A stretch of DNA of 64,000 nt from Escherichia coli (lineage in GTDB: Bacteria; Pseudomonadota; Gammaproteobacteria; Enterobacterales; Enterobacteriaceae), in assembly GCA_009729775.1 (NCBI GenBank), contig GCA_009729775.1_4081.1, one strand, 5' to 3'. Position numbers and translations under genes: made by a program. Under the pieces are notes generated by a model that searched no databases, was not told the DNA's origin, and saw nothing but the letters and a program-made list of their open reading frames with translations. Within the stretch, counting starts at the first letter, position 1. Every line of letters begins with the position of its first letter. Of the stretch, positions 19,881-33,736 are shown one piece after another.

Positions 19881-19989
19881 TACGTTTCATTGGTTTAATG
19901 ATGCTTTCAACTTCATTCAGTACTTGATTAACGTTCATGGTATAATCCCCAATATAAGCGGCCTAAATCGACCGCTAACGATGTTTTGA

Positions 19990-20259
19990 TTAATAGGTGT
20001 ATGGTTGACGCTCAAACAATGATTGCACGTTGTACGCCCCGCTAATGGGCTTTGCTGGCAAATCAATTTTATATTGTTCACGCTTAAAAATAATAAAACG
20101 GCAATTGTTTTTAACATCAAAATTGATTGAACGTTCCAATAGCTTTCCTTCGTGTACAAATACAAGATAACCGCTTGCTACTTGTTTTGTAGTACTGGTT
20201 GCAACCATTGACCGACGAACATGAGTACCTGCATCGATTAAAGTACTGATATTTTTCAT
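19990..20259 (-). CDS. hypothetical protein (89 aa)
   Basis: AGAGGA RBS; ORF track. Confidence 0.6.
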   Translation of the reverse strand: MKNISTLIDAGTHVRRSMVATSTTKQVASGYLVFVHEGKLLERSINFDVKNNCRFIIFKREQYKIDLPAKPISGAYNVQSLFERQPYTY

Positions 20260-20339
20260 TTTACTATCCTCTTAATTTGATTTAATTTCTTTCCCCTATG
20301 CAGACACTATATCAAAGTATCTGCATAAAGTAAAGCTAA

Positions 20340-20684
20340 TTAAAGATCTTTTTTGCGTTTAACATCAGTTACCGAACTGTAAACAGTGATATTATTGTCA
20401 CGGCAAAAACGGGAAAGATAAGAACCGCGTAAAAACTCTTTATCTTCCATATTAATAACCTTGCTAAATTCTTCCATTGCTACAGTGTCAAAGTGATCCC
20501 CGTATCCATATTGGAACGGCACGTTTACTACTTCAATAAAATTACCATCAATTTCTACGTCTACACTTAAAGAGAAATAAGTGTTACCATATGAAGCCTG
20601 GAACCAACGCCGAGCGGCAATATGTACAACTTCAACAGAAGACAGGTTGATATTTTGTGCTGAGATAGTGTTGATGTTAGCCAT
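20340..20684 (-). CDS. hypothetical protein (114 aa), paralog of 13716-14039
   Basis: GNTY, YGYG, VKRKKD motifs. Confidence 0.65.
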   Translation of the reverse strand: MANINTISAQNINLSSVEVVHIAARRWFQASYGNTYFSLSVDVEIDGNFIEVVNVPFQYGYGDHFDTVAMEEFSKVINMEDKEFLRGSYLSRFCRDNNITVYSSVTDVKRKKDL

Positions 20685-20770
20685 TTTAATTTCCTCTTAG
20701 TTGTCTTGATAAAATCTATTATGCCAGTACTATCAAACTATGTCAATAGTACTGTGATAATAATTTTACT
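20685..20770 (-). promoter_or_regulatory. 85-bp promoter/RBS cassette, duplicated at 20980-21065
   Basis: Near-identical sequence including TTGACA-type promoter, RBS AGAGGAAA and ATG. Confidence 0.6.
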
Positions 20771-20978
20771 TACTTTGCTTTGATGCTTTATGTTGTGCAA
20801 CTGCCATCACTACATCAGCACGAACAAAGTTAGCAACCGTATCAGTATAATATTTGATTGCATCGTCAATATCTGCGAACATCCGATACATTCCGCACCA
20901 TGATACTTTATAACCCGCTTTCACTTGTTCCAGTTTAACCAGTGAATTGTTTACTTTGATTTTTGTAATGATAGCCAT
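20766..20978 (-). CDS. hypothetical protein (70 aa)
   Basis: AGAGGAAA RBS. Confidence 0.6.
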   Translation of the reverse strand: MAIITKIKVNNSLVKLEQVKAGYKVSWCGMYRMFADIDDAIKYYTDTVANFVRADVVMAVAQHKASKQSK

Positions 20979-20979
20979 T

Positions 20980-21065
20980 TTTGTTTCCTCTTAGTTGTCT
21001 TGATAAAATCTATTATGCCAGTACTATCAATCTATGTCAATAGTACTGTGATAATAATTTTACTT
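20980..21065 (-). promoter_or_regulatory. 85-bp promoter/RBS cassette, second copy
   Basis: Direct repeat of 20685-20770. Confidence 0.6.
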
Positions 21066-21203
21066 ACTTTTTGCTTTCTTTATTGCTTCCACCTGGTCGG
21101 CCCACTCTTTACCCCATACTTGAGCGTTATAGTGATACTGACAAAGAGCAACGCCCCGTTTCAAACCAGTGATAGATTTTTTACCACATTGACAAGTTTT
21201 CAT
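21060..21203 (-). CDS. small Cys-rich protein (47 aa), not in ORF track
   Basis: Hand translation MKTCQCGKKSITGLKRGVALCQYHYNAQVWGKEWADQVEAIKKAKSK; AAGAGGAAA RBS; possible Zn-binding C-x-C...C-x-Y-H. Confidence 0.45.
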   Translation of the reverse strand: MKTCQCGKKSITGLKRGVALCQYHYNAQVWGKEWADQVEAIKKAKSK

Positions 21204-21288
21204 TTTTAGTTTCCTCTTAGTGGGGAGAATCATTTCTCCCCTTGATGTAATGTATTATACTTTATCCGATTTACTTTGCAAGTACTTT

Positions 21289-21516
21289 TTAGTTTAATTC
21301 ATCCAGGCATAAGATACGATCTACGCCGAGATCCGTTAAGCTAATGGTTGGCACTTGATAGGTTTCAATGTATTCTACACTAGCCCACTGACCGAACTCA
21401 TTCACCGCCCAGGTATTCATTGCAAAATGTAATTCCGCACCTTTCTTATTAGTAATTACAGCAACAGTAGAAGAATTGCCAGTAGTACCAGATACGCGAG
21501 TGATTACGATAGCCAT
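21289..21516 (-). CDS. hypothetical protein (75 aa)
   Basis: AGGAA RBS; ORF track. Confidence 0.6.
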   Translation of the reverse strand: MAIVITRVSGTTGNSSTVAVITNKKGAELHFAMNTWAVNEFGQWASVEYIETYQVPTISLTDLGVDRILCLDELN

Positions 21517-21586
21517 TGTTTTGATTCCTATTCAGTAGTTGATGTATGTATTATGTCAGTACTTAAAACTATTGTCAAACTATTTT

Positions 21587-21739
21587 TTAAAGACTATCTA
21601 CGATAGCTGCCGTTTCAATAATAGACTTACCTTTTTTTGAACATGCAATAACTGCTTTAAATTCCTTTGATGACCATTCTTTTTTACTGCATACTAACAT
21701 TACTTGCATAGTGAAACAATCCAGTTCATAAGTATTCAT
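21587..21739 (-). CDS. small protein (50 aa), not in ORF track
   Basis: Hand translation MNTYELDCFTMQVMLVCSKKEWSSKEFKAVIACSKKGKSIIETAAIVDSL; GAGGA RBS. Confidence 0.4.
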   Translation of the reverse strand: MNTYELDCFTMQVMLVCSKKEWSSKEFKAVIACSKKGKSIIETAAIVDSL

Positions 21740-21960
21740 CTTTAAATCCTCAGTTAGTTAAGGTGTCTTGCCTTGATGTAACTAATTATACGCCTTTCTC
21801 TTAATCGTGCAAGTACTTTTTATTACTTTTTGCAAAATACTTTAAACGCTCTCAATCGCATTCTAACGGCCTTAACTCCACCAGCTAGGGCGATGCATCA
21901 GATAATCAGTTTAATGCGTTAGAATCGATTCTATGAGGTGCTGACGGTCTGGAATGCAAT

Positions 21961-21993
21961 AAAAACAAAAAAGCCCACTGCTTATAGTGGGCT
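21961..21993 (-). terminator. rho-independent terminator
   Basis: AGCCCACT-loop-AGTGGGCT hairpin with long U-run on the minus strand, after the stop of 22015-22497. Confidence 0.7.
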
Positions 21994-22014
21994 AGTGATT
22001 CAGTACTTTAAATG

Positions 22015-22497
22015 TTATGCTTCAATTTTGCGGTGAGATTCGATCCATTCCTCGCGAGTCATACCGCTTTCTTTGATAGCATCCAGTACTACCGCAATGC
22101 AGTTACCGCGTACAGGAATCAAATGTTCTTCCCCGTTATCAAGGACAACCGTAACACGTTCTTGAATCCATTTTTTAGGCTTAGATTCCGGCTTATCTTC
22201 ACCGTACTTAACCGCCAGGGCTTTATGTGCCATTTCAATAACCACTTCCAGATCTAAACCAGACACCGCCGCCTGAATACTTTCTATTGTTGCTTGCAGT
22301 TCTGCTTCACGGGCTTTTTTCTGTTCTTCCAGTTCTGCTACCTTTTTGGCTTGTAGTTCTTTCGCTTCACTGTAAGCAATGTTAAAATTGTTGCGTACTG
22401 CTTTCATGGTATCATTATCCAGGTCAGCCAGCAATTCAGCAGCAATCACAGTATCGTTAGAAATCAGTGCTTTCAGAAATGATTTTACATTAGCCAT
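22015..22497 (-). CDS. putative H-NS-like nucleoid-associated protein (160 aa)
   Basis: Start adjusted to MANVKSF... (GAGGA RBS); N-terminal coiled-coil-like region, C-terminus LDNGEEHLIPVRGNCIAVVLDAIKESGMTREEW parallels the H-NS DNA-binding core [34 protein letters not shown]. Confidence 0.4.
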   Translation of the reverse strand: MANVKSFLKALISNDTVIAAELLADLDNDTMKAVRNNFNIAYSEAKELQAKKVAELEEQKKAREAELQATIESIQAAVSGLDLEVVIEMAHKALAVKYGEDKPESKPKKWIQERVTVVLDNGEEHLIPVRGNCIAVVLDAIKESGMTREEWIESHRKIEA

Positions 22498-22684
22498 TTT
22501 ATAAATCCTCAATTAAAGTTTAAGTTAGTTTATCAAAGTTTGTTTGACGTGTCCAGTTTTTCATTCGACTTACTGGCGGTCTACTTAATGTTCCCCGTCT
22601 TGATGTAATACATTCTACGCTTTTCCCTGGTAATGTCAACTACTTTTTTAAAACTATTTTCAAAGTATACCAGTACTACGATAA

Positions 22685-22720
22685 TACAAAAACAAAAAAG
22701 CCCACTGTTTAAGGTGGGCT
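22685..22720 (-). terminator. rho-independent terminator
   Basis: AGCCCAC-loop-GTGGGCT hairpin plus U-run on minus strand after 22738-23037. Confidence 0.7.
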
Positions 22721-22737
22721 AGTGATTCAGTACTAGA

Positions 22738-23037
22738 TTATAAACAGTTAATTACTCCGGTGTGCGTTACTTTCTCAGTATCCATCACAGTGACCGAACC
22801 GCGTTTAGTACTGGCATCATAATAAATTGTTGTGCTACCGTTTTTGTCTTCTTCATGGAACGGGCCGTTTTTAAATGCTTCCGGCTGGATCTCTAAATCC
22901 TTTAATACAATCTCGCCAGTTCTTTCATCGGTCATTGCAACAGTGCACTGAATGAATTTTTCACTACTTACATCTAATGACGCATTAACAGCGAAAGAGG
23001 AAACAGATAAAGCCAGGGCGATGATTGCAATTTTCAT
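22738..23037 (-). CDS. secreted small protein with signal peptide (99 aa)
   Basis: N-terminus MKIAIIALALSVSSFAVNAS; AAGGATA RBS. Confidence 0.6.
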   Translation of the reverse strand: MKIAIIALALSVSSFAVNASLDVSSEKFIQCTVAMTDERTGEIVLKDLEIQPEAFKNGPFHEEDKNGSTTIYYDASTKRGSVTVMDTEKVTHTGVINCL

Positions 23038-23121
23038 TTGATTATCCTTAGTTACCAGGGGGAACCGCTCCCCCTTGCTATGTAAAATATTATACAGTAC
23101 TAAAAACTAATTGCAAGTACT

Positions 23122-23358
23122 TTATGATTTTTTATAAAACATTTCGGCAGTGATATTTTTACCCGTTGGCTGTACTTTATCCAGAATTTTTTGATGCCCT
23201 GGCCGTCCAAATGAATATGATCCGTAAACCGTAAACCAGTAGTTACCCTCAGTGTTTACATGTACAGCACAATAGGGAACGCCCCGCGATTCATCACTAG
23301 TAAAGTGTGCTACCGTTCCCGTTACATTCGAAGTCGTTGATTTGATTTGTTCAAGCAT
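23122..23358 (-). CDS. hypothetical protein (78 aa)
   Basis: AAGGAATA RBS; ORF track. Confidence 0.6.
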   Translation of the reverse strand: MLEQIKSTTSNVTGTVAHFTSDESRGVPYCAVHVNTEGNYWFTVYGSYSFGRPGHQKILDKVQPTGKNITAEMFYKKS

Positions 23359-23466
23359 TTTCTTATTCCTTAGTTACCAGGGGAACCGCTCCCCTATGCA
23401 AAACATTATACGCGTTTAAAAACTATTGTCTAGTATTTTAATAAAAAGTATTTGAAAAATAGTTGT

Positions 23467-23495
23467 TGACAAGTGCATCCAGTACTGGCATAATA
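23467..23495 (+). promoter_or_regulatory. plus-strand sigma70-type promoter driving a short non-coding transcript
   Basis: TTGACA-N17-CATAAT on the plus strand; no plus-strand ORF follows. Confidence 0.45.
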
Positions 23496-23519
23496 CTTAC
23501 ATAAAGACGAGATAGTCAC

Positions 23520-23548
23520 TAACCCACAGGGTGCATAGATCCGTCTAT
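23520..23548 (-). repeat. conserved 28-bp intergenic motif (copy 6, inverted orientation)
   Basis: Plus strand reads CTAACCCACAGGGTGCATAGATCCGTCTA, reverse complement of the core. Confidence 0.65.
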
Positions 23549-23565
23549 TAAATGATTCAGTACTG

Positions 23566-23593
23566 CAAAATAAAGGGGATCAATTGATCCCCT
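23566..23593 (-). terminator. rho-independent terminator
   Basis: Perfect palindrome GGGGATCAATTGATCCCC followed by U-run on minus strand after 23599-23820. Confidence 0.7.
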
Positions 23594-23598
23594 CTGTA

Positions 23599-23820
23599 TT
23601 ACTTAGTAAGGTATAAACAGAAGTCACCTTTATTTGCTACGCCGCCAGTGTAACGCGATGAATAGTTAGAAACGTCCTGGACTTCTGCTATTACCAGTGT
23701 ATCATCATTCAATTCGTCGCAGAAGCAAACGGCTGGATCTTTTACGCCGATATTGTCGGCATGTTCCCGCATAGATTTAACCAGTGCTTCAAGTTGGGAA
23801 AGAGTAGTGATATTAGCCAT
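23599..23820 (-). CDS. hypothetical protein (73 aa)
   Basis: Start adjusted to MANITTLSQ...; GAGGAAAA RBS. Confidence 0.6.
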   Translation of the reverse strand: MANITTLSQLEALVKSMREHADNIGVKDPAVCFCDELNDDTLVIAEVQDVSNYSSRYTGGVANKGDFCLYLTK

Positions 23821-23907
23821 TTTATTTTCCTCATTACCAGGGAGAACCATTTTCTCCCCTCTATGTAAACCATTATACAGTACTAAAAACTAATTGCAAG
23901 TACTTTT

Positions 23908-24111
23908 TTAATTTAATTGCTTTAAAACATACTCAAAGACACCACGCACATCATTGATCATCGCCTGGCGGTTAGCAGGTAACGCATCAGGATCGCCACT
24001 ATCCCAGGCATTGATAAAACTCCCCAAATCATGATAGATTTTATTCTGTAAGCCGATCAACTGCAATTCTTTTTCTTCAAGCTCTTTGATACGTTCAATT
24101 AAATCACTCAT
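23908..24111 (-). CDS. hypothetical protein (67 aa)
   Basis: Start adjusted to MSDLIERIKELEEK...; AAGGA RBS. Confidence 0.55.
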   Translation of the reverse strand: MSDLIERIKELEEKELQLIGLQNKIYHDLGSFINAWDSGDPDALPANRQAMINDVRGVFEYVLKQLN

Positions 24112-24128
24112 TATATAATCCTTAGTAC

Positions 24129-24410
24129 TTAATTGTAAGATCCGCAACGGTCGCAGTAGTGCCCCTCGTCATCGTCAACGAATTGACCAACGAAATTATC
24201 TACTTTCGCTTTCAGGTTATTATAATCGTTTTCTACTTCCTTTAAACGCTTCTGGTAGTATTCCAGTGCTTTAAGATATGCCGCATCAGTAGTTTTCTCC
24301 TGCATAGCTAAATTCATGCCACGCGTTTCATCATAAAGCCAATAACCATCAGTACATTGGCTAATAGACAATGACTTGCTTAACACTGTATAGTTAATTA
24401 CTTTGCTCAT
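24129..24410 (-). CDS. hypothetical protein (93 aa)
   Basis: Start adjusted to MSKVINYTVL... Confidence 0.55.
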   Translation of the reverse strand: MSKVINYTVLSKSLSISQCTDGYWLYDETRGMNLAMQEKTTDAAYLKALEYYQKRLKEVENDYNNLKAKVDNFVGQFVDDDEGHYCDRCGSYN

Positions 24411-24500
24411 TAGATAACCCTCAGTAAAGGCGGGAACCACTCCCCGCCTCGATATAAAGTATTATACGCTTTTAAACTTAGTATGCAAGTACTTTTTAAA

Positions 24501-25112
24501 TTAATATGCGATAGATTCTACTACATCGTCGATAACGTTAAATTGATATTCGTTACCCTCAATCAGTCCTACAATGTTTTCAGTAGTAAACTGGTCTTCA
24601 TAAGCATTTTCTAAATCACGGTACAGCTTACAAGATAATTCTCGGATAGTATCAGTCAGTAAGTTTTCCAGATCCTCAGCTAATGCAGCCTGTTTTACAG
24701 TTAAATCAGTGTAGCGAGTATCAACGCAACCGCCTACCGTGTTTTCGTGAGCGTAGCGTGATTGGGAACGTTCTACACTCATTTCCAAATCATCTTCGTT
24801 CAACAGGTGACGGATGGAACGATATTTCGTTAACGCCTTAACCTTGCGTAAAAACTTCTCAGCGTCAACGTGGTCAGTACTGATTGATGCACCGTCACCT
24901 TGCGACCAAAAACCACTGTATTGCAATTCAGCTTCATCTATGCCGTATTCTGGCAGTACTGTTTCTTTATAGTATTCCAGTACTGATTCAGCAAAGAAAT
25001 TATCCTCACTTGCACGTTCCCGATCCCGAACCAGTTCGATAGCCGCCGCTTGTTGTTCTGCGTTCAGTTCAGAAAAATCCATAACGAAAGTAGTAGTAGT
25101 GATAGTTTTCAT
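24501..25112 (-). CDS. hypothetical acidic protein (203 aa)
   Basis: GAGGG RBS; ORF track. Confidence 0.65.
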   Translation of the reverse strand: MKTITTTTFVMDFSELNAEQQAAAIELVRDRERASEDNFFAESVLEYYKETVLPEYGIDEAELQYSGFWSQGDGASISTDHVDAEKFLRKVKALTKYRSIRHLLNEDDLEMSVERSQSRYAHENTVGGCVDTRYTDLTVKQAALAEDLENLLTDTIRELSCKLYRDLENAYEDQFTTENIVGLIEGNEYQFNVIDDVVESIAY

Positions 25113-25180
25113 TTTGTAACCCTCATTCAGTAGTTGATGTAAGTATTATACGCTTTTAAAAACAATTGTCAAACTATTTT

Positions 25181-25256
25181 ATCAGGGGAGTTTTTCGTGT
25201 GCCTTACTCCTGGGCTACTTAACGGGAAGTTACTTATTTCGTTCCCCGTCCTGATG
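25181..25256 (-). promoter_or_regulatory. two-hairpin leader element between tandem promoters (copy 2)
   Basis: Near-identical to 14596-14668. Confidence 0.5.
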
Positions 25257-25325
25257 TAAAACATTATACGCCTTTAAACATAGTTTGCAAGTACTTTTTG
25301 AAAATAGTTTTTATCTCTTTCATAT

Positions 25326-25353
25326 AGATACATTCCCGCACCCTATGGGCTAT
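25326..25353 (+). repeat. conserved 28-bp intergenic motif (copy 7)
   Basis: AGATACATTCCCGCACCCTATGGGCTAT. Confidence 0.65.
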
Positions 25354-25411
25354 CGCCTTGTGTCCGGCTTGTAAGTATTATCTCACTAAGCCGGATAACG
25401 GTCAAGTACTT

Positions 25412-25678
25412 TTATTCAAGTACTGCAATCTTTTTAGTACTGTATACAGTAACGCGGTTGCCCTTTCGGTCGTGCTTTATTTCTACCACTCGACGCGATA
25501 CACTATCAGGACTTTTTAAAACCGATCTCCAGTACTGAATTGATCGGGCTGTACTTTGCTTTACTACGGCCCAACGTTTACCACGTTCAGAATGTACGCC
25601 CATATCTTTAAACGTCGCCCCGTCCTGGCGTGCGGCAATCCGAGCAAGTTCACGCGTTGCAAAGTATATAATATTCAT
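25412..25678 (-). CDS. hypothetical protein (88 aa), paralog of 13221-13616
   Basis: Start adjusted to MNIIYFATRELARI...; shared IKHDRKGNRVTVYS block. Confidence 0.6.
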   Translation of the reverse strand: MNIIYFATRELARIAARQDGATFKDMGVHSERGKRWAVVKQSTARSIQYWRSVLKSPDSVSRRVVEIKHDRKGNRVTVYSTKKIAVLE

Positions 25679-25760
25679 GCTGTTACCCCTATCGTTGTTG
25701 TATAAAAGAAATCTATTATAAAGTACTATCACCGTGCAATAGTACTTTTAATCTATTCTC

Positions 25761-26000
25761 TTACATTCCAACCATCGCCGCACGGATCGCAGTAGTGCTA
25801 TACTTAAAGCCGTCCGGTGTTTTATCTTGTCCAGTCTGTTCTAAAAATAGCATCATATGACGGGCCGCATCATTACGATTAGTGTTAGCGGCAATAAAGT
25901 CCTGGGCCAACCGGTATAATGATTCGTCGTTATTAATCCAAAGGCTTACATTCCATTGAGTTTTGTTTTTGTGACCTAAGAACATTTTTGATTTAGCCAT
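25761..26000 (-). CDS. hypothetical protein (79 aa)
   Basis: Start adjusted to MAKSKMFLGHKN...; AGAGGA RBS. Confidence 0.55.
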   Translation of the reverse strand: MAKSKMFLGHKNKTQWNVSLWINNDESLYRLAQDFIAANTNRNDAARHMMLFLEQTGQDKTPDGFKYSTTAIRAAMVGM

Positions 26001-26093
26001 TTTTTTAATCCTCTTATATAGTGGGGAACTATTCCCCACCTGATGTAAAACATTATACGCTTTTAAACTTAGTTTGCAAGTACTTTATTAAAC

Positions 26094-26456
26094 TTATTCG
26101 TAAATCTTTCCACTATCAGCCCATACCAGGAAACGAGGCATATTATCCCATGCATCTTGTTTTAAATTTAAACCGTGTAATACTTCTGTACTTTCCATTC
26201 CTGGTACTGGTTTACTATACACCGCGAACATTTCGCCCATGTACTGATAAGCCATCGTTAAATCACTGGCGATCATCTTATGAATCATCGCATCAAGCAT
26301 CACGGTAGCGGCGTATTGTTCACGCTTAAGCGGTAACATTGCAATAAGTTCCCGATAAGCTGAAATGTGAATTTTTACCGTTTCAGCCGGAAGATCTTTC
26401 ATCTCTTCACGGAAGTTAACCAGGTTAGCAATAATTTTAGTGATTTGAGTAGCCAT
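26094..26456 (-). CDS. hypothetical protein (120 aa)
   Basis: Start adjusted to MATQITKIIANLV...; AGAGAG RBS. Confidence 0.6.
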   Translation of the reverse strand: MATQITKIIANLVNFREEMKDLPAETVKIHISAYRELIAMLPLKREQYAATVMLDAMIHKMIASDLTMAYQYMGEMFAVYSKPVPGMESTEVLHGLNLKQDAWDNMPRFLVWADSGKIYE

Positions 26457-26762
26457 CGTTTTAATCTCTCTTAAAGTGTAGCGGGAAGTGTTCCCGCTCT
26501 CGATGTAAAACATTATACGCCTATCGGGATAGTATGCAAGTACTTTCTACTAATACTTTTAAAATAGTTTTCTTTCTATATAGGAGTACTATCATTCAGT
26601 ACTGAATCAACCAAATCACTACTATACCCCATAAAACGGCCTCAGCCGCTTTCTAACGCATTAATACACCTAAGCTATACATTTGCACCGCCACCAGCTA
26701 ACCAGGGCTTTATAGGCCGTTTAAGGGCGTTAAATTATTTTCAATTATTTTGTTTTTAGCTA

Positions 26763-26790
26763 TTGACTCAGTACAAAAAAAGCGTATAAT
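26763..26790 (+). promoter_or_regulatory. plus-strand sigma70-type promoter in non-coding hub
   Basis: TTGACT-N16-TATAAT; no ORF downstream. Confidence 0.45.
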
Positions 26791-26977
26791 TACTACATAG
26801 ACGCGAGAAAGCGGATACCCCAGGGGGTGGGAAGATCCGTCCAAAATTCATATAATTTAAAAAGGATACACTCCCGCACCTTAGCAGGTCATAGCACTTT
26901 CTCAGTACTGAATCATAGTACCATAGTACGCCCCTGGATGGCAAGCAAATTAATTAAAACTTTTTACATCCAGGGTA

Positions 26978-27005
26978 TTGCTTTATTTTTCCAGTACTGT
27001 ATAAT
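26978..27005 (+). promoter_or_regulatory. plus-strand promoter-like element in non-coding hub
   Basis: TTGCTT-N16-TATAAT followed by motif copy 8. Confidence 0.35.
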
Positions 27006-27029
27006 AGTTTCATCAAGTCGAGAAAGACT

Positions 27030-27057
27030 CAAGCCCACCGGGTGCATAGTTGTATCT
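27030..27057 (-). repeat. conserved 28-bp intergenic motif (copy 8, inverted orientation)
   Basis: Plus strand reads CAAGCCCACCGGGTGCATAGTTGTATCT. Confidence 0.65.
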
Positions 27058-27102
27058 AAAATTCAGTACTGAATTATTTTTTAAAAATATCCATCCAGGC
27101 GG

Positions 27103-27131
27103 TTGACATATCCATCAAAAAGATAGATAAT
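27103..27131 (+). promoter_or_regulatory. plus-strand sigma70-type promoter reading into the iteron block
   Basis: TTGACA-N17-GATAAT; followed by GGGGAAACCATCCCC hairpin. Confidence 0.45.
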
Positions 27132-27224
27132 GATTCCAGATTCAGAAAAATCTAACTCCAGATACTGCGGGGAAACCATCCCCACGCGGTAGGGGAACTA
27201 TTGGAAAAAACAAAATAAAAATTT

Positions 27225-27400
27225 TGATTTAGCCGTCTGTACTTCCAGACGTGTAACCATCTAGCCGTTTAGCCGTCCAAACGTCTAGCCATCCAGCCGC
27301 CTAGAGGGATAGCCATCTTTACTTCCAGACTTCTGGAGGGCTAGACATATCTACGTCCAAAATCCACCCAGGGTAACTACGCCCAAAATCCGTCAGTACT
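27225..27400. repeat. iteron-like cluster of short direct repeats
   Basis: TAGCCGT/TAGCCAT repeated at least 5 times, ACTTCCAGAC twice, CCAAAATCC twice, within about 180 bp of non-coding DNA. Confidence 0.6.
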
Positions 27401-27942
27401 ATACTATAGATCTATCTTTTGAAAGGGAGTATTCAGTACTGCCACAATAGCCCTCACTGTTACTGTAGGAGGATGAAGACTATCATGTAGTACTGAATAC
27501 TGTTAGAGGGAATCCACCAGCTTGTGCTGGTGGCATAATGCATTAGATTAAAATCAGTACTGACACCATTCTGTTAATATCAGTACTGTTTATATTACGA
27601 AAAAAGAGGTTATAAAAAGATGTACCACCCATAGGAGGAACTATCCTTTCAGTACTGTCTCACGACAGGAGGTAGAGTGAATGAATTGTTTGCGGCAACT
27701 CATCTCTCTATGTAGAACATTATACAGTACTGAATCATAATGTCAATAGCTTTCTTTCATTATTCAGTACTGAAATCGTATAATCTGTATCGCTACAAAA
27801 CTCATTATATCCCACAAATCCTATATGTCCCAACGTAAATTTCAACTTTCGAAGATCCAACTTTTATTTCATAGGTACTCCAAATTTTTTACGATCCAGA
27901 TTTAGGATGGAGTACTAACCAACTTTTTGCTGGAGCCTCAAG

Positions 27943-27990
27943 GGGTAATTGAATTTTACCCCGAATGGTAAAGGGGTAATTGAAATTAAG
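27943..27990. repeat. GGGGTAATTGAA direct repeat with embedded hairpin
   Basis: GGGGTAATTGAATTTTACCCC inverted repeat followed by a second GGGGTAATTGAA. Confidence 0.5.
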
Positions 27991-28009
27991 GTGAAAGTAA
28001 TAATTCAGT

Positions 28010-28260
28010 ACTAATCATTGCGTGATTACTTTTGATTACATTTGATGTAATTTGCAAAATGGAAAAGGAGCTTGGAAACTACAAAGTACGGCAGACTTCC
28101 TCTGCCTACTTAGTGGCATATCAGTACTGCTACGTTCTTGATTAAACGTGAACATTCCTGTACTCTAGTACTCACTACTGATCACTACAGTGATTATAAA
28201 TGATTACTTAAATGTTTATATATGATTACTTATGACTACCTATGATTACGGGGTTTAGCC
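28010..28260. repeat. cluster of TGATTAC heptamer repeats
   Basis: At least 7 copies of TGATTAC (or TGACTAC) in about 250 bp of non-coding DNA. Confidence 0.55.
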
Positions 28261-28363
28261 TGGGGAGAATCCTAGTGATCGCATTTGTCCAGGCTGAATT
28301 TTAACAATTCGCCTGTACATAAAGGTTGTTCACTAGGAGCTTCCCCTGTCTACTTGTGTTTAA

Positions 28364-28555
28364 TTACTTCCTATATATAAGCATTAAGATATAGTAGTAC
28401 TGATTATACTGTACATTCTCTTTAATATTATAAGGGTCTATCGCAATCTCGGTACATCTGTTAAATGCATATCTATTAAATGCCAGTGGAATTATAGATC
28501 TAATCCATACTTGTTCATTTTCTTTTAGTTTACTTATATAGAAGTTTTTATACAT
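28364..28555 (-). CDS. family-C small paralog (63 aa)
   Basis: One of about 10 tandem about 65-aa ORFs; MYKNFY start, C-terminal LIYRK. Confidence 0.5.
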   Translation of the reverse strand: MYKNFYISKLKENEQVWIRSIIPLAFNRYAFNRCTEIAIDPYNIKENVQYNQYYYILMLIYRK

Positions 28556-28570
28556 AGTATTCTCTATTAA

Positions 28571-28753
28571 TTAATATGATAGTACTAGTGTTAGTACTGA
28601 GCACAATTGTTCTTTATAGTTCTTAGGGTATATAGAATCTTTTATGCACTCATTGAAGTGCCATAGGTATAATCTTGGGTCGCATTCTTTATATATTCTT
28701 ACGGGGACGAATGTTAGTTTTCGTATATAGAATTCTTTATGTTCTTTATTCAT
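28571..28753 (-). CDS. family-C small paralog (about 60 aa)
   Basis: Start adjusted to MNKEHKEFY... Confidence 0.5.
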   Translation of the reverse strand: MNKEHKEFYIRKLTFVPVRIYKECDPRLYLWHFNECIKDSIYPKNYKEQLCSVLTLVLSY

Positions 28754-28754
28754 A

Positions 28755-28943
28755 TTAGTACCTGAATATAAGTAGGATAGTGTTATATAGCTGGTCATAT
28801 GTACTACTATTTTCTATACTTCGTTCTATGCAGTTATTGAATCCCAGTACTGCCAAATCGTTATCCAGGGGGACTTTGTATCTGGCGTAGTGTTCAAAAA
28901 TGCTGGGGAGAAATTGTTTGTAGTATTCTTTGTGGTTATTCAT
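28755..28943 (-). CDS. family-C small paralog (62 aa)
   Basis: MNNHKEYY start. Confidence 0.55.
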   Translation of the reverse strand: MNNHKEYYKQFLPSIFEHYARYKVPLDNDLAVLGFNNCIERSIENSSTYDQLYNTILLIFRY

Positions 28944-28944
28944 A

Positions 28945-29127
28945 TTAGTACCTGAATGTTAGCATTACTACGTAGTACAGCATATATGGATTATCATCGT
29001 ATATGAGCGTGTACTTAGTACATTGTTGGAACATTATCTTTGCGTGATCTTTTATTCCTATTGGTTCTGTTGGTATATGGTGCTGGAGATGCATAGGGAT
29101 TTTATCCCTGTAGTATTCTTTATGCAT
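28945..29127 (-). CDS. family-C small paralog (about 60 aa)
   Basis: Start adjusted to MHKEYYRDK... Confidence 0.5.
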   Translation of the reverse strand: MHKEYYRDKIPMHLQHHIPTEPIGIKDHAKIMFQQCTKYTLIYDDNPYMLYYVVMLTFRY

Positions 29128-29779
29128 AGTTTGTAATATACGTAATGAGGTGATGCATTTTCTTATTAGTACTGATAAGTTCCTGTACATGTTTTGTTAG
29201 TTTGTACGCGTTTTTATAGAGTCCTGGATTATCGATTACAGTACTGTACATGAATTCTTCTTCTGGTGTTAATTCTTTGTTTTGTAGTTCTTTTAGGAAT
29301 TGCAGTACTGTATCAGTTTCGTTAGTACGTTGCTTTTGGAAGAAGTGCATGTTATCGTGTATTTTTTCTGAACCCATGCAGTACATATCGCCGATTTGGA
29401 ATTGTGCAGTACTGATATCATGGGTGCTATTACAATTCCCGAAGAAGTATACATTCCCGAAAGATAGAATTATAGTGCACGGGATATTATCCATGTGTAT
29501 ATAGATAGATGCATTCTTTAGTGCTTTTGTGCTGGTATTAGTACTCAATACTTTTAAATCAGTATTATAGATATTAATAAAAGCAAGAGCTATATTATTT
29601 TTCTTCAAGTACGATTTGAGGTTCTTAGATACGAGAACATTTCTGGATTTTTTCTTTTTATTTCGTTTCTTTAGTACATTTGGGTGATACATATATGCAG
29701 ATGTAATAGATTCTGCTTGAATACTGTTGAGGTACTTAAAGTGCTTAAGGTATTGTTTGCTGTGTGCATTAAGTTTCAT
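29120..29779 (-). CDS. hypothetical protein (219 aa) embedded in family-C array
   Basis: ORF track; no recognisable motif. Confidence 0.55.
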   Translation of the reverse strand: MKLNAHSKQYLKHFKYLNSIQAESITSAYMYHPNVLKKRNKKKKSRNVLVSKNLKSYLKKNNIALAFINIYNTDLKVLSTNTSTKALKNASIYIHMDNIPCTIILSFGNVYFFGNCNSTHDISTAQFQIGDMYCMGSEKIHDNMHFFQKQRTNETDTVLQFLKELQNKELTPEEEFMYSTVIDNPGLYKNAYKLTKHVQELISTNKKMHHLITYITNYA

Positions 29780-29977
29780 TTGGTTTCCTTTATACAGATG
29801 CCAGGGCGAGGATTTCCCTGTAGGGATTATCTTGTGTTAGTACAGCATAAATGCAGCTATTGAGATTAATATTTTTAGTACTTTTTGTTCCTAGGTTGTA
29901 GTACTTCACGAAGGTGTCGTACATGAAACGGTCGTTAATGCTTATTCTTTCTATATAGTATTCTTGCATAGTGTACC

Positions 29978-30160
29978 TTAAATAGCGATTAGTTTCATTA
30001 CTTCTCTGTATGTATACTTTTCGTTTTGTGCATCTCTTGTGACGACATATAGGAAGGTGTGTTTATCTTTTTTGTTCCCGCAATTGTAGAAAATATTGAA
30101 CTTATTGAAGTTGAATCTTTCGGCGTGTTGTAGTTTAGTTAAATAGAATTCTATGTTCAT
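29978..30160 (-). CDS. family-C small paralog (60 aa)
   Basis: MNIEFY start; KYTYREVMKLIAI C-terminus like 30169-30354. Confidence 0.5.
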   Translation of the reverse strand: MNIEFYLTKLQHAERFNFNKFNIFYNCGNKKDKHTFLYVVTRDAQNEKYTYREVMKLIAI

Positions 30161-30168
30161 TTTATTCC

Positions 30169-30354
30169 TTACATTTCAATAAGTTTCAGTACTGCTCGGT
30201 ACGTGTACTTAGTTGTCAGTGCTTCTTTAATAGAAATACAGAAGTAATGTTGTTTGTCTCTTATACTGCCGCGTTTGTAGTACCACACATGGGAGTTGTG
30301 ACTGTACTTGTCTCTGTCGGATAGTTGTTGGTAGTAGTAGCTTATATGATTCAT
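30169..30354 (-). CDS. family-C small paralog (61 aa)
   Basis: KYTYRAVLKLIEM C-terminus. Confidence 0.5.
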   Translation of the reverse strand: MNHISYYYQQLSDRDKYSHNSHVWYYKRGSIRDKQHYFCISIKEALTTKYTYRAVLKLIEM

Positions 30355-30406
30355 TGTAATGCAATTATCCTTACTATATTAAAGTACTCGATCCTTGGTG
30401 TACTTT

Positions 30407-30601
30407 TTAGAACTTAAAGATGAGGTTCAGGATAGAGCGGTACTTAGTTGCAGGGAACGTATGTTCTATTGCATCACGTGTCTCCATCCTGAAATCGTAA
30501 TTGTAATATAGATTATTCTTTCTCATAGGTCGTGCTAAAGAGAATGATAGCTGTTCTTGCTTGTGTAGTTTACTACAATAGAAATCTTTATGATTATTCA
30601 T
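30407..30601 (-). CDS. family-C small paralog (64 aa)
   Basis: MNNHKDFY start. Confidence 0.55.
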   Translation of the reverse strand: MNNHKDFYCSKLHKQEQLSFSLARPMRKNNLYYNYDFRMETRDAIEHTFPATKYRSILNLIFKF

Positions 30602-30803
30602 AGAAGTAGATTAGTCCTATTAAACCTGAGTACATAATATTTTTGTTATTGCATTCGATTGCTTCTAGAGTACTACGTATACAATTATTAAAGCAATCTC
30701 TACCGAAGTGAGTATTGGTACTTACAGGTGATACACTCCTTAGAAACAATTGTTCTTCGTTGCTAAGGTATTTGGTGTAGAATTCTTTATGTTCAGTATT
30801 CAT
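30594..30803 (-). CDS. family-C small paralog (69 aa)
   Basis: MNTEHKEFY start. Confidence 0.55.
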   Translation of the reverse strand: MNTEHKEFYTKYLSNEEQLFLRSVSPVSTNTHFGRDCFNNCIRSTLEAIECNNKNIMYSGLIGLIYFYE

Positions 30804-30804
30804 A

Positions 30805-31008
30805 TTAGTGCTCGATTAATAGGGTCAGGATATAATAGTATTGCATACTTTCTGCCCCTTGTAAAGCATTTCTTATTTTATTATTCCTGTACGAGTTCAG
30901 GAGTTTAGGACAACGTTTGTAGTCTATAAAAGTATTTTGTGTATACAGTAGGCTTTCTCGTAGACCTTTTGTTGGTAGTGCATCGATGTAGTACTGTTCA
31001 ATGTTCAT
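30805..31008 (-). CDS. family-C small paralog (67 aa)
   Basis: MNIEQYY start. Confidence 0.5.
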   Translation of the reverse strand: MNIEQYYIDALPTKGLRESLLYTQNTFIDYKRCPKLLNSYRNNKIRNALQGAESMQYYYILTLLIEH

Positions 31009-31232
31009 ATAGATAGCAGTACTAAGATTTTTGATAATTGTTTATTGCTATCCCCGCAGATGTTGCTGTGTAAAATACTCACAATGAGGGTATCAATTGC
31101 ATTGTTCATCATAAGGGTGCATCCTGGACTATTATAATTTTTTAGCTCAATTAGCCACGAACTATCCGCGAGAAATTCCCCGTACTCTAGTTCATTTAGA
31201 GTATTGAGGTAGTACTTAAGAGTATTTGTCAT
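31005..31232 (-). CDS. family-C-like small protein (75 aa)
   Basis: ORF track; first gene of the minus-strand array, divergent from the RCC1 block. Confidence 0.5.
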   Translation of the reverse strand: MTNTLKYYLNTLNELEYGEFLADSSWLIELKNYNSPGCTLMMNNAIDTLIVSILHSNICGDSNKQLSKILVLLSI

Positions 31233-31334
31233 GTGTAGTTCTCCTTATATTCCTTCTATAGTACACCAGTACTGAAAGGATGTCAAGGGTTTTCTTTATG
31301 GGGTAAATATGATATAATGAATAAGGAGGGATTT

Positions 31335-32483
31335 ATGTTACCTTTTGCAAGAATGATGAATTACGGGAATATTGCCCCTGGTGATGATGGACGTTTTAAA
31401 ATATATTCCAGTGATTCCATGTATCTTCATGATACTTATACTGATAAGTTGTATGCATCTTCTGCGACGAATTGGGGTACTGGAACAGGTGTAGCATCGA
31501 GTAAATTTATTCTTTGTGCGGAGAATGTTAAACGAGTTCTATTGGAAGATAACAGTAGTGATTGTCAATTGTACGAAGAGAAAGGTACGGGAAAAGTTTT
31601 TATCACTGGCAACACGAAGGCATTCACTGGTGTAACTGATAGAAAAACTTTGTGGACGGAATGTACTACGTGGATAACATCAGGTGGTATTAATGTTTCT
31701 GATATAAAATACATGAGTAGTTTTAATGATATGAAGGTAAATTTGATAACAAACGATGGTACATTGTATTGTTGTGGAGCTAACAATAACTCTAACCTAT
31801 CATCATTTGGTGATGGTACAAACATTAATTCTTTTAACACATTCAAAAGGGTAGATACTATAACTTCGGTTAAAAAGGCAGTTGGTAACATATACCTAAA
31901 AGAAGATAATACTTTATGGGGTTGTGGTTTTAACTATTACTATCAGTTAGGTACAGGCAATCAAACTTCTATTACTGGGGTGACGATGATTGCTTCGGAT
32001 GTTATAGATTTTGATGTAAGTTATCAGAGTACATTTTTTATTAAATCAGATAATAATTTGTACGCATGTGGTAAACAGTTCGGTGCACAATACGGGAACG
32101 AATTTGGCACAGGTGGTACTTCTTCATCTACAGATATACAATACAAAACTCCAACATTATTGAGTTCAGGAGTTTATACTTTATATACTTGTGTTAGTAA
32201 CATGGCATCTCATATTGTCAAAAAAGATGAAGTTATGTATGCATCTGGTTCGAATGGGTTTGGTCAATTAGGTGTTGGTAATAATATTAATCAGTACTCC
32301 TATACTCCTTCGTATACTTCTTTTAATAGTTCGTGTGATTTGGTACGCAGTCCATCTGGATCACTTATACTTACGGATACTGGAAAATTATATTATTGTG
32401 GCCCTGCAATATTAGTAATGGGGGGAATTGCTGGACAAAACATTCTTAGTTATACAGAAGTAGATATGTCATTTATACAATGA
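31335..32483 (+). CDS. RCC1-like beta-propeller repeat protein, paralog 1 (382 aa)
   Basis: Start at MLPFARM with AAGGAGGG RBS; repeated G-x-N-x-x-GQLG-x-G type motifs. Confidence 0.75.
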   Translation: MLPFARMMNYGNIAPGDDGRFKIYSSDSMYLHDTYTDKLYASSATNWGTGTGVASSKFILCAENVKRVLLEDNSSDCQLYEEKGTGKVFITGNTKAFTGVTDRKTLWTECTTWITSGGINVSDIKYMSSFNDMKVNLITNDGTLYCCGANNNSNLSSFGDGTNINSFNTFKRVDTITSVKKAVGNIYLKEDNTLWGCGFNYYYQLGTGNQTSITGVTMIASDVIDFDVSYQSTFFIKSDNNLYACGKQFGAQYGNEFGTGGTSSSTDIQYKTPTLLSSGVYTLYTCVSNMASHIVKKDEVMYASGSNGFGQLGVGNNINQYSYTPSYTSFNSSCDLVRSPSGSLILTDTGKLYYCGPAILVMGGIAGQNILSYTEVDMSFIQ

Positions 32484-32491
32484 ATTAATAT

Positions 32492-32520
32492 GCCAGTACT
32501 TGATACTGGCTTTTCTTATT
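32492..32520 (+). terminator. rho-independent terminator of RCC1 cassette
   Basis: GCCAGTActtgaTACTGGC hairpin followed by T-run; repeated after every paralog. Confidence 0.7.
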
Positions 32521-32533
32521 GTATTAAATATAG

Positions 32534-32556
32534 TATAATGAATAAAGGAGGGAATT
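32534..32556 (+). promoter_or_regulatory. conserved cassette promoter/RBS (TATTAAATATAGTATAATGAATAAAGGAGG)
   Basis: TATAAT box and AAGGAGG RBS conserved upstream of each RCC1-like gene; promoter class not resolved. Confidence 0.5.
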
Positions 32557-33666
32557 ATGTTACCTTTTGCAAGGATGGTTAAGTACGGAAATATTGTACC
32601 TGGTCCTAAAAATATAATTAAAGTTGGTGCTTCTACACAAGGACAATTCTTATTGACTGATTCACATGATTTATATTACATAGGTAGAAATCAAGGTGGT
32701 GAATCTGGAAATGGTAATACCAACACGGTATCTTCATGGATATTAGTAAGTGCAGATGTTTCTAATTTTTTCGTGGGTGATCGTACACTTGTTATTATTA
32801 AAAATGATAATACGATATGGACATCAGGTCAAACGTACTGGTTCTCATCTTCTACAACTACTTCTTACAGTACTGTATTAGTTGAAAGAACTAATTGGTT
32901 TACCAATGCTATACCAGTAAGTGAAATTGCTAATATTGTATGTACAAATGGTTTAATATTTGTACTTAGCACTAATTCAGTACTCTATGGTGCAGGAGAT
33001 AATGGATATCGTGGTTCTTTGGGTATTGGTTCCTCATCAATTTACACATTAACTCAATGTGCTACGAACGTTCGTAAAGTAATGACCAATGCGAATGATA
33101 GTATGTATCTTACATTAGATAATAAGCTATATAGTTCTGGATGGAATAGTAGTGGGCAGCATGGTACGGGGAACCAAACACAAATTAACACTTGGGGATT
33201 GCGTAGTTCTGGTGTAATCGATGCAGCCATTGGTGGTAATGCATTAAATTACTATAATGGTACATCATATTTCGTATGTGGTCAAACTCCAAACTTTCTT
33301 AGTTCAGGTACGACTACATTCCGTGCAGTTCCTGTAAGTACCTTGCCTAATAGTTCTCCATTGTTTATGACGAATTCACCTGCCTTAAATACTGCTACAC
33401 AAATGGTAATTACTAGTACATATCAGAAGGGTGTTGGGGCGAACCGTGGTTTGGGATTAAACAATTCCCAAACTGGTGCTATATATAGTGCTACCAATTT
33501 ACAATTACCCGTTGAAGTTAGTGAGATTAGGGATGTTCTTTTTAGTGATGGTTTGACATCGTTATTAACCAAAAATGGAGATGTGTATAGTACTGGATCG
33601 TATTACGCCATTCCAGGTGCAATCGAGGATGTTGCAGTCTTTACTAAAATTGATTTACCAAAATAA
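32557..33666 (+). CDS. RCC1-like beta-propeller repeat protein, paralog 2 (369 aa)
   Basis: MLPFARMVKYGNIVP start; SGWNSSGQHGTGN and similar repeats. Confidence 0.75.
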   Translation: MLPFARMVKYGNIVPGPKNIIKVGASTQGQFLLTDSHDLYYIGRNQGGESGNGNTNTVSSWILVSADVSNFFVGDRTLVIIKNDNTIWTSGQTYWFSSSTTTSYSTVLVERTNWFTNAIPVSEIANIVCTNGLIFVLSTNSVLYGAGDNGYRGSLGIGSSSIYTLTQCATNVRKVMTNANDSMYLTLDNKLYSSGWNSSGQHGTGNQTQINTWGLRSSGVIDAAIGGNALNYYNGTSYFVCGQTPNFLSSGTTTFRAVPVSTLPNSSPLFMTNSPALNTATQMVITSTYQKGVGANRGLGLNNSQTGAIYSATNLQLPVEVSEIRDVLFSDGLTSLLTKNGDVYSTGSYYAIPGAIEDVAVFTKIDLPK

Positions 33667-33673
33667 CATAATG

Positions 33674-33704
33674 CCAGTACTTGATACTGGCTTTTATTTT
33701 TTGA
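33674..33704 (+). terminator. rho-independent terminator of RCC1 cassette
   Basis: GCCAGTACTTGATACTGGC plus T-run. Confidence 0.7.
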
Positions 33705-33736
33705 TTAAATATAGTATAATGAATAAAGGAGGAATT

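Follow-up and report, generated by a model that had tools for sequence, protein, structure and literature searches.

A gene-free region at the proposed right-hand terminal-repeat boundary of an Asteriusvirus jumbo coliphage, with a predicted MetJ operator-like array

Among described systems, the one nearest to the locus analysed here is Repeat Region 3 of phage T5, a 1.2-kb untranslated region (9194-10409) that spans the repeat boundary at 10139 and extends 270 bp beyond it. Repeats and palindromes are dense in this region, one repeat family occurring on either side of the boundary, and it is thought to hold a cis-acting injection stop signal, the core of which Davison proposed to be made up of DnaA boxes, paired in inverted-repeat modules. 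The untranslated repeat regions of T5 are also better conserved than the open reading frames (ORFs) encoded in the repeat (Davison). Long repeats are likewise known from the Rak2-like jumbo phages (CBB, 22,456 bp; G17, ~20 kb; fEgEco12, 20,993 bp; Sharanji, 20,668 bp; Muenster, 20,030 bp), including close relatives of the phage considered here with mapped ends (PMC13070987, PMC6563267, PMC11895373); the papers on these repeats give their existence and length, and in those consulted the boundary region, its promoters and its arrays are not described. Our subject is a gene-free gap of 1.9 kb, which we call the hub, at positions 26457-28363 of a window of 64,000 nucleotides (contig GCA_009729775.1_4081.1, deposited as Escherichia coli). 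We propose, with a probability of roughly 0.7, that the hub is a cis-acting non-coding control region at the right-hand boundary of a direct terminal repeat of ~20 kb.

The hub resembles Repeat Region 3 in being an untranslated stretch of more than 1 kb, rich in repeats and palindromes, that would straddle the inner repeat boundary, and with the boundary placed at 28110 its overrun into unique DNA would be 253 bp, against 270 bp in T5. In each case the region is more conserved than the repeat-encoded ORFs beside it, and each carries motifs of binding sites for host proteins. There is no detectable sequence homology between the hub and T5 itself, domains of the T5 A1/A2 type were not found by Pfam among the 62 ORFs next to the hub, which is a weak negative, and unlike T5 the hub has strong promoters and lies beside repeat-encoded genes that all point one way. 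A further likeness is to the left end of T7, where short repeats next to the terminal repeat are reportedly followed by the strong E. coli promoters A1-A3, which drive DNA entry (Dunn and Studier 1983 and later entry studies). That end shares with the hub a gene-free DNA end, short repeats and then consensus host-type promoters reading inward. The terminal repeat of T7 is only 160 bp long, and T7 is not known to have an outward promoter trio.

Proposed placement of the hub at a terminal-repeat boundary

The gap lies between a 120-amino-acid (aa) gene on the minus strand, whose true start is the ATG at 26456, and a 63-aa gene with its stop at 28364, and the same gap is left unannotated in 121Q, PBECO4 and G17. 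Window positions 26400-28500 are matched by 46 Asteriusvirus-type phage records at 87-92% identity, and the matching records that were inspected are Asteriusvirus jumbo coliphages and Salmonella phages (121Q, PBECO4, G17, phAPEC6, fEgEco12 and others); judged by this likeness, the source of the window is an Asteriusvirus jumbo coliphage of the 121Q/PBECO4/G17 group. The initial annotation had described the gap as a non-coding hub without a credible ORF, and both statements hold, in that no ORF survives comparison with eight relatives and 26457-28363 is dense in promoters, palindromes and repeats.

The hub can be placed relative to the genome ends through relatives whose ends have been reported. 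The linear record of G17 begins and ends with a 100% identical direct terminal repeat of 20,668 bp (1-20668 = 350150-370817), its base 1 aligning to window position 8287 and its last base to 28110. The last and first bases of fEgEco12 map to 8287 and 28110, respectively, that is, to the same two nucleotides as those of G17 in the opposite orientation, and over its first 300 nt fEgEco12 has 96.7% identity to the window read from 28110 to 27811. For fEgEco12, PhageTerm located the ends and digestion with ten restriction enzymes confirmed them (PMC13070987), and PhageTerm also gave the 20,668-bp repeat of Sharanji; the G17 repeat was originally inferred from coverage, and the 22.5-kb repeat of CBB from coverage and pulsed-field gel electrophoresis. 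With these positions transferred to the window, the ends of its own phage would lie at the same nucleotides, and the hub would be the right-hand boundary region of the ~20-kb repeat, comprising 1.65 kb inside the repeat, the terminus and 253 bp of unique DNA. A packaging site had been one of three candidate roles in the initial annotation, and a packaging or terminus role is supported by the fact that the mapped termini of the relatives fall inside the hub, at 28110, to the nucleotide.

The architecture is that of the mapped Rak2-like repeats. The boundaries within Asteriusvirus fall on the same nucleotides, and conservation is high up to the cut and for ~10 nt beyond it, after which it drops and insertions appear. 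Counted from the reported ends, the motif AAGTC at +13 to +17 and a T at +3 are shared across genera by Asteriusvirus, Muenster (Alcyoneusvirus), CBB and XbC2 (both Mimasvirus) and BF (Eneladusvirus). The reported ends of CBB, XbC2 and BF all begin TATCYNTYCCTGAAGTC, and the same five lineages share further motifs over the next ~250 bp past AAGTC. Because AAGTC and its adjoining motifs are common to all five, we take the ends to be homologous across genera. The terminus-proximal module in which they lie (Table 1) also contains a hairpin with arms GGGGTAA/TTACCCC (27942-27962), two copies of TGATTAC (28023-28039) and a GC-rich hairpin, GGCAGA-CTTCC-TCTGCC, at 28090-28106; the last was considered as a conserved terminal feature and rejected, since it is absent from CBB, XbC2 and BF.

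The hub as a whole is conserved to a degree that its neighbours are not, at least 80% of it being kept in 35 records, whereas the 1.85 kb of early genes next to it is kept in a single one, and Alcyoneus-, Mimas- and Eneladusvirus share conserved parts of the hub. The other repeat boundary, at 8286/8287, lies in an ordinary intergenic spacer of ~250 bp (window 8080-8450). On the repeat side the first 150 bp contain three copies of ACGCAT and one ATGCAT variant, and just outside the repeat there is a promoter on the minus strand, TTGACT-17-TATAAA. The proposed placement would explain the conserved "empty" 2 kb of about 45 jumbo-phage genomes, an ordinary and useful outcome, and would supply the correct linear start for records whose deposited sequence is circularly permuted or has a collapsed repeat. 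Terminal-repeat boundary regions are a known kind of element, and the less ordinary part of this locus is the predicted MetJ array.

The tandem 8-bp array

Each metbox of E. coli is bound by one MetJ dimer and functions only in adjacent tandem copies (PMC3228920), and the host species encodes MetJ (metJ, NC_000913 4128078-4128395). We applied the published matrix with the criteria of that study, by which a unit must reach at least one quarter of the consensus score, at least two units must be adjacent in register and their total must reach at least the consensus score, giving a threshold of 12.58 bits. The array in the hub (Table 1) is the only predicted MetJ site in the 64 kb. Seven adjacent boxes at 27247-27302 score 50.5 bits, further in-register boxes lie at 27231, 27311, 27327 and 27343, and 100 shuffles never exceeded 21.4 bits or a run of four boxes. 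In a positive control of 16 kb of E. coli K-12 the same procedure returned the metJ/metB and metF operators only, with four boxes each and scores of 31 and 25 bits, both exceeded by the hub array; adjacent boxes in the phage arrays number from 7 to 28. Base frequencies were symmetrised for 143 units from nine phages and set against the MetJ matrix, giving a correlation of r = 0.96 over 16 cells, and even the minor preferences of MetJ are matched, with A more frequent than C and T never found at position 3, and C more frequent than T at position 4. The array thus shares with the E. coli operators the 8-bp unit, the exact tandem register and the major and minor base preferences; it differs from them in being viral and off-promoter, with no met gene downstream and with binding that is predicted only. 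Its length varies among Asteriusviruses, the insertions and deletions being mostly in 8-bp steps. The polarity of the array relative to the terminus was also considered and is uninformative, since the units are near-palindromic. On these sequence grounds we regard the array as a predicted MetJ operator-like site, and we found no published description of metboxes in phage genomes.

Similar arrays recur in other phages. Distant BLAST matches of the hub fell in non-coding DNA of T5-like Aeromonas and Vibrio phages and consist of long runs of 8-bp units. Array sizes are 11+5+3 boxes in EJP2, 28 (221 bits) in AhSzq-1, nine in PR1, 8+4 in Quinn and nine in PGT2, and comparable metbox arrays are present in XbC2, CBB and BF. 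Their positions are alike as well: in the Rak2-, T5- and T7-like records examined the array lies within 0.04-0.9 kb of the record start or of an annotated repeat boundary. It is 670-810 bp from the first base in CBB, BF and Erwinia phages, 808-916 bp in five further Asteriusvirus records (the hub array itself), and 38-109 bp from the left end of the record in the T7-like PGT2, and in the T5-like PR1 it occupies 9624-9691 of a 10,461-bp repeat, the equivalent of Repeat Region 3. The presence of a metbox-type array like that of the hub in the T5-equivalent region of the Demerecviridae PR1, AhSzq-1 and Quinn could be convergent. The hosts of 95 of the 96 array-bearing phage records belong to genera in orders that have MetJ (orders per PMC3228920), namely Escherichia, Vibrio, Erwinia, Aeromonas, Salmonella, Providencia, Pectobacterium, Cronobacter and Serratia.

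Two further observations concern the corresponding regions of other phages. Clusters of the palindrome AAATGAGAATCATTATCATT, which agrees with the E. coli Fur-box consensus in 14-16 of 19 positions, are found in Muenster (1-1500), RaK2, 7t3 and T5 (9470-9640), with 5-9 sites per locus against ~0.3 expected; T5 has three in Repeat Region 3 and eight in its first 12 kb, and its "direct repeat C" and palindromes E-I are composed of the same unit. There are no Fur boxes in the hub. The distribution of metboxes and Fur-like boxes by lineage suggests that different host-repressor sites occupy the same position. The T5-like phages also have a conserved AGGCGCAGGAGGG motif immediately before the metbox array, exactly where the Quinn record starts; the motif contains GCGC, as does the annotated major nick of T5 at 7.9% (9661-9668, beside palindrome J), and it may mark an equivalent nick or boundary.

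Proposed role of the hub and the alternatives

The reading proposed above is built on anatomy, conservation, homology to mapped termini and the statistical metbox match, and a barrier function would be a step beyond these. We propose that each virion carries the hub twice, on the inner side of one repeat copy and again at the extreme DNA end. The terminal motif and the 10-bp-phased TGATTAC repeats would be candidate recognition elements for end formation or packaging. For the array, a packaging role is less natural, since such a role would be expected to use phage proteins. The perfect sigma70 promoter ~400 bp in from the terminus would serve the ~50 small early genes of the repeat, and the three outward promoters would fire toward the array and the terminus and yield non-coding transcripts. 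The 16-unit array, by its sequence, is predicted to bind MetJ cooperatively in a long protein coat. On DNA entry only host proteins would be present, and host-repressor sites could be read before any phage gene is expressed. In our view a MetJ-coated array lying between convergent promoters, 0.75-0.9 kb from the boundary, would then halt or delay DNA entry or transcription at this specific position, with MetJ titration as a possible side effect; the array begins ~93 nt past the P3 start site and ~340 nt past that of the minus-strand promoter, each counted downstream. By analogy, this barrier or pause would be the role assigned to the injection-stop region of T5. Sites for host proteins, together with their recurrence near boundaries in unrelated phages, argue for a role in cis that is exerted before phage proteins appear.

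If MetJ does bind, a host metabolic repressor would be built into the end-proximal architecture of three unrelated terminal-repeat phage groups, and MetJ would become a concrete candidate for the reader of the injection-stop region in T5-like phages, for which Davison proposes DnaA. If the reading is true, the array would be a natural and very long tandem transcription-factor array with a mechanical (roadblock) or titrating effect. A bolder extension, which we put forward as speculation and think unlikely, is that host-repressor arrays are sequence-specific stop or pause signals for phage DNA delivery and that the 350-kb genomes of the Rak2-like phages enter in two steps, like that of T5. The arrays would consist of MetJ metboxes here and in several T5-/T7-like phages; Alcyoneusviruses and T5 would use Fur-like boxes, and T5-like phages DnaA boxes. 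The DNA of the first step would be the 20-kb repeat with its ~25 consensus promoters and ~50 host-takeover genes.

Several observations weigh against the hub being a boundary control region read by host proteins. The ends assigned here are transferred from the termini of relatives by homology, and one relative, UE-S1, was published with a different repeat of 8.3 kb, which a later paper deems mis-assigned. The two repeat boundaries lack significant similarity to each other; a common cleavage signal was sought by local alignment of 300 nt on either side of each, in both orientations, and was rejected, the alignments being no better than those of shuffles. DnaA boxes (TTWTNCACA with at most one mismatch), single or paired, are absent from 26457-28363, and their number across the window, 27, is close to the 28 expected. 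All the repeat genes read away from the hub, which would fit a T7-like entry, hub end first and assisted by transcription, equally well. The array does not overlap a promoter, unlike authentic met operators, no gene follows it, and five of its 16 units score below the threshold for a box. One array-bearing phage is listed on Xanthomonas, a genus outside the MetJ orders, and the Alcyoneusviruses, the 7t3 group and T5 have no metbox array and carry Fur-box-like palindromes instead, which means that MetJ sites are not essential to the architecture.

A different emphasis, compatible with the boundary control region rather than an alternative to it, is that the hub serves mainly to produce stable non-coding RNAs, one or several, for example antisense regulators of early transcripts, made from the outward promoters P1-P3 and from a similar module at 23466. 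We consider this possible but less likely than not. The three plus-strand promoters of the initial annotation exist: a scan of the region, with hexamer matches scored out of 12, found those at 26763 and 27103, and the one at 26978 (P2), which falls below the -35 threshold of the scan, was read directly. Their hexamers and spacing are unchanged across nine Asteriusviruses, barring the unverified CMSTMSU with deletions in P1 and P3, and the spacers diverge within the genus (two variants for P1, three sequences for P3), a combination expected of working promoters. P1 and P2 occur also in Alcyoneusvirus and Mimasvirus relatives and P1 in the 7t3 group. Of only seven promoter-like sites on the plus strand in a scan of the 64-kb window, the four within the block of minus-strand early genes are P1-P3 and 23466. 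The total of promoter-like sites in the hub is 11 against 10.9 expected by chance, so that only the high scorers stand out. The transcript of P1 is conserved across genera, its leader (Table 1) being 70-77% identical in other genera and 92% identical over 51 nt in the Salmonella phages 7t3 and SE_PL, and its GGGTG/CACCC arms are invariant in eight sequences with one covarying pair. The leader-type hairpins reported for the hub are real as well, folding being stronger than in shuffles at 26797-26990 on the plus strand (z = -2.9) and, on the minus strand, at 27600 to 27500 (z = -5.4) and 28360 to 28250 (z = -4.2); the hairpin after P3 also has z = -2.9.

Against a stable RNA stand the absence of any Rfam match, at the gathering score across the window and at E<=1 in 26300-28500, and of plus-strand terminators in a scan of the hub. 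The P1 leader could not be called a structured RNA, with covariation in only one of 13 predicted pairs, and a candidate P1 terminator at 26932-26975 was rejected, its hairpin not being kept in the G17 alignment. The suggestion of an RNA locus is accordingly plausible through its conserved hexamers and the cross-genus segment 26797-26905, and the likeness to the stable RNAs of T4 that came with it is without support. The statement that the hub has no tRNA-like sequence agrees with ARAGORN, which finds no tRNA or tmRNA in the window; with the empty Rfam search, a tRNA, a tmRNA or a known RNA family in the hub was rejected.

The promoters on the minus strand belong to the boundary reading itself. 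The interpretation in the initial annotation stands in part, its terminal-repeat context, the inward consensus promoter and the nature of the 8-bp array having gone unrecognised, and the minus-strand promoters at 27746 to 27719 (12/12) and at 26540 to 26512 having been overlooked. The former reads inward from ~400 bp inside the terminus and is conserved in the genus, and inward promoters are found at comparable distances from the end in Muenster (271 bp, 12/12), BF (269 bp) and fEgEco12 (366 bp). The latter, the promoter of the first repeat-encoded gene, is followed by a 5' leader hairpin at 26498-26479 and is conserved in nine genomes, and modules homologous to this promoter and leader occur at eight other sites in the repeat. 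In all, 8287-28110 has ~25 near-consensus sigma70 promoters on the minus strand, 14 of them perfect TTGACA-16-TATAAT.

The array might instead act in trans, as a decoy of which the replicated copies, two per genome, soak up MetJ and so derepress methionine and S-adenosylmethionine synthesis in the host to the advantage of the phage; its location close to the end would then be incidental. Such a role would suit an array that is longer and stronger than authentic operators, overlaps no promoter and expands and contracts in copy number among relatives, and metK and the methionine biosynthesis genes are under MetJ control (PMC3228920). We nevertheless think it improbable as the main function. A decoy would work anywhere in a 350-kb genome and need not be terminal, which makes a pure decoy less likely, given arrays that lie 0.04-0.9 kb from record starts or boundaries; the boxes of a single infecting genome would be too few to matter early; and the Fur-like boxes of sister lineages at the same place point to a positional role.

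We are about equally doubtful that the 8-bp array is bound by a phage protein, such as a small ribbon-helix-helix (RHH) protein or a small terminase subunit, and only resembles metboxes. Most of the ~50 repeat-encoded proteins have no known function, and tandem short repeats are typical binding sites of RHH partition and packaging proteins, which counts in favour of such a protein. The same unit, however, occurs in Rak2-like myoviruses, in Demerecviridae and in an autographivirid, and no shared DNA-binding protein has been identified, a statement made short of a cross-family protein comparison. Pfam detects no MetJ or RHH domain among the 62 neighbouring ORFs, so that a phage-encoded protein of either type near the hub was rejected as a candidate detectable in this way. 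The position-by-position match to MetJ (r = 0.96) and the coincidence of the host range with the MetJ orders (PMC3228920) also speak for the host protein.

A replication origin, either promoter-primed in the style of T4 or T7 or based on iterons, had been a further candidate role and is still less probable, with no specific support. Cumulative GC skew is lowest at 27.5-28.5 kb, with a change of sign even though the genes on both flanks are on the minus strand, and the hub has short tandem repeats, strong promoters and AT-rich stretches. These points are offset by the lack of DnaA boxes, by a main array that matches a host repressor operator and not iterons, and by the T5 region, which is analogous and is not an origin. 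The change of skew coincides, moreover, with a family of 60-aa paralogues of odd composition, followed by plus-strand genes. The weakest alternative, which we dismiss, is an overlooked small protein encoded by the longest ORF of the gap (26827-27072, plus strand, 81 aa): its frame is open in eight of nine genomes and ORFs are called here by some annotators, but it begins with GTG, spans P2, has no Pfam match and fails the conservation test, being shifted at about residue 47 in six of eight relatives to give unrelated C-termini and broken in one of those six (CMSTMSU), and the opposite strand is just as open.

Other features of the hub and neighbouring genes

Table 1. Features of the hub and of the proposed repeat, in window coordinates
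Feature	Position	Strand	Basis or remark
Putative direct terminal repeat, 19,824 bp	8287-28110		homology to G17 and fEgEco12 ends
Promoter of first repeat-encoded gene, TTGCAT-17-TATAAT	26540 to 26512	-	read from sequence
P1, outward, TTGACT-16-TATAAT (11/12)	26763-26790	+	scan
P1 leader, ACAUAGACGCGAGAAAGCGG...GGGUG...CACCC, candidate structured non-coding RNA	26797-26905	+	cross-genus conservation
P2, outward, TTGCTT-16-TATAAT, CAGTACTG abutting the -10 hexamer	26978-27005	+	read from sequence
P3, outward, TTGACA-17-GATAAT (11/12), followed by hairpin 27163-27191	27103-27131	+	scan
Tandem array of sixteen 8-bp units matching the MetJ metbox AGACGTCT	27231-27358	.	Tandem Repeats Finder (period 16), MetJ matrix
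(C)AGTACT(G) palindrome cluster	27394-27772	.	two strong inverted repeats inside
Perfect consensus promoter, TTGACA-16-TATAAT (12/12), CAGTACTG in spacer	27746 to 27719	-	scan
Terminus-proximal module with cross-genus motifs AAATTTTGGAGTACC and ATCCTAAATCTSGA	27860-28110
Putative physical terminus and repeat boundary, ...CTCTGCCTACT / TAGTGGC...	28110/28111		homology to G17 and fEgEco12 ends
Second TGATTAC cluster, 10-bp spacing	28190-28249	+	unique DNA, 80-140 bp past the boundary
Long hairpin, 23-nt arms, directly 3' of the 63-aa gene	28256-28352	-	inverted repeat, z = -4.2

Three repeat clusters had been noted in the hub and all three were found again. The first is the array at 27231-27358, with its period of 8/16 bp, and the second is a pair of AAGGGGTAATTGAA copies at 27940 and 27971. 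The third consists of TGATTAC at 10-bp spacing on either side of the cut (28023-28046 and 28190-28249); five of the nine plus-strand copies of TGATTAC in the 64-kb window lie in the hub. The cluster outside the repeat is conserved in the genus except in EJP2, and TGATTAC was rejected as a clade-wide element, since it is missing from EJP2 and from other genera and is therefore lineage-specific. A 28-bp motif, said to occur twice, is less readily recognised and probably corresponds to the repeat centred on CAGTACTG (families D2-D4). CAGTACTG has 11 copies in 26597-28122 and 58 in the window, against 0.8 expected. The inverted repeats in the palindrome cluster are at 27555-27588, with arms ending in CAGTACTG, and at 27515-27534 (CCACCAGC/GCTGGTGG); the cluster is terminator-like on the minus strand, and an ARNOLD terminator is annotated there in G17. 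The long hairpin beside the 63-aa gene is a candidate terminator or insulator that could keep transcription of the unique region from entering the repeat.

The palindrome AGTACT is the commonest hexamer of the window, with 260 copies; the next, CAGTAC (151), is part of the same palindrome, the commonest unrelated hexamer is TTTTTA (123), and CAGTACTG is the commonest octamer, and several other 6-bp palindromes have zero copies. The density of AGTACT is 2.7-9.5 per kb, mostly 5-9, in the Rak2-like loci examined (Asterius-, Alcyoneus-, Mimas- and Eneladusvirus and the 7t3 group), against 0-0.9 in T5-/T7-like loci. Within long ORFs it occurs in all three frames (38:14:29), which indicates that selection acts on the DNA. 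Some copies are in the spacers of early promoters (TTGACA-N8-CAGTACTG-TATAAT) and most are elsewhere, and a literature search on the enrichment of AGTACT or CAGTACTG found nothing relevant.

The minus-strand promoters of the repeat are typically each followed by a leader hairpin, and these promoter-plus-leader modules are copies of one another. The plus-strand module downstream of P2 (26990-27071) is 76% identical to the one at 23478-23565. The latter belongs to an element at 23466-23600 in which a lone plus-strand promoter, TTGACA-17-CATAAT at 23466, stands amid minus-strand genes, the 88 nt downstream of it being 76% identical to the P2 module and ending in a GC hairpin, AGGGGATCAATTGATCCCCT. 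By its sequence, the element is a candidate small antisense RNA of ~60-100 nt.

The genes encoded in the repeat are a set of host-takeover style. Its ORFs (8442-26513) gave single matches to a DksA/TraR zinc finger, a ParE-like toxin, a GNAT acetyltransferase, DUF7249 and DUF7247, and a 203-aa ORF at 24501-25112 resembles, by its length (612 bp) and position alone, a Muenster gene annotated as a YeeU-like antitoxin. The early genes at 24650-26500 are a mosaic, with segments 68-81% identical to rV5-like/phAPEC8-like myoviruses of 137-150 kb, and this mosaicism next to the hub indicates frequent exchange of early genes between unrelated coliphages.

On the other side of the hub, 28364-31232 on the minus strand holds a tandem family of about a dozen tyrosine-rich paralogues of ~60 aa, one example of their C-termini being YTYREVMKLI. 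These genes and the repeat genes lie on the same strand and have opposite GC skews, which accounts for the skew flip at the repeat boundary. They are followed at 31317-41203, on the plus strand, by eight tandem paralogous genes of 358-449 aa with similar terminator-like spacers between them, which in relatives are annotated "putative DNA condensation protein" or "regulator of chromosome condensation".

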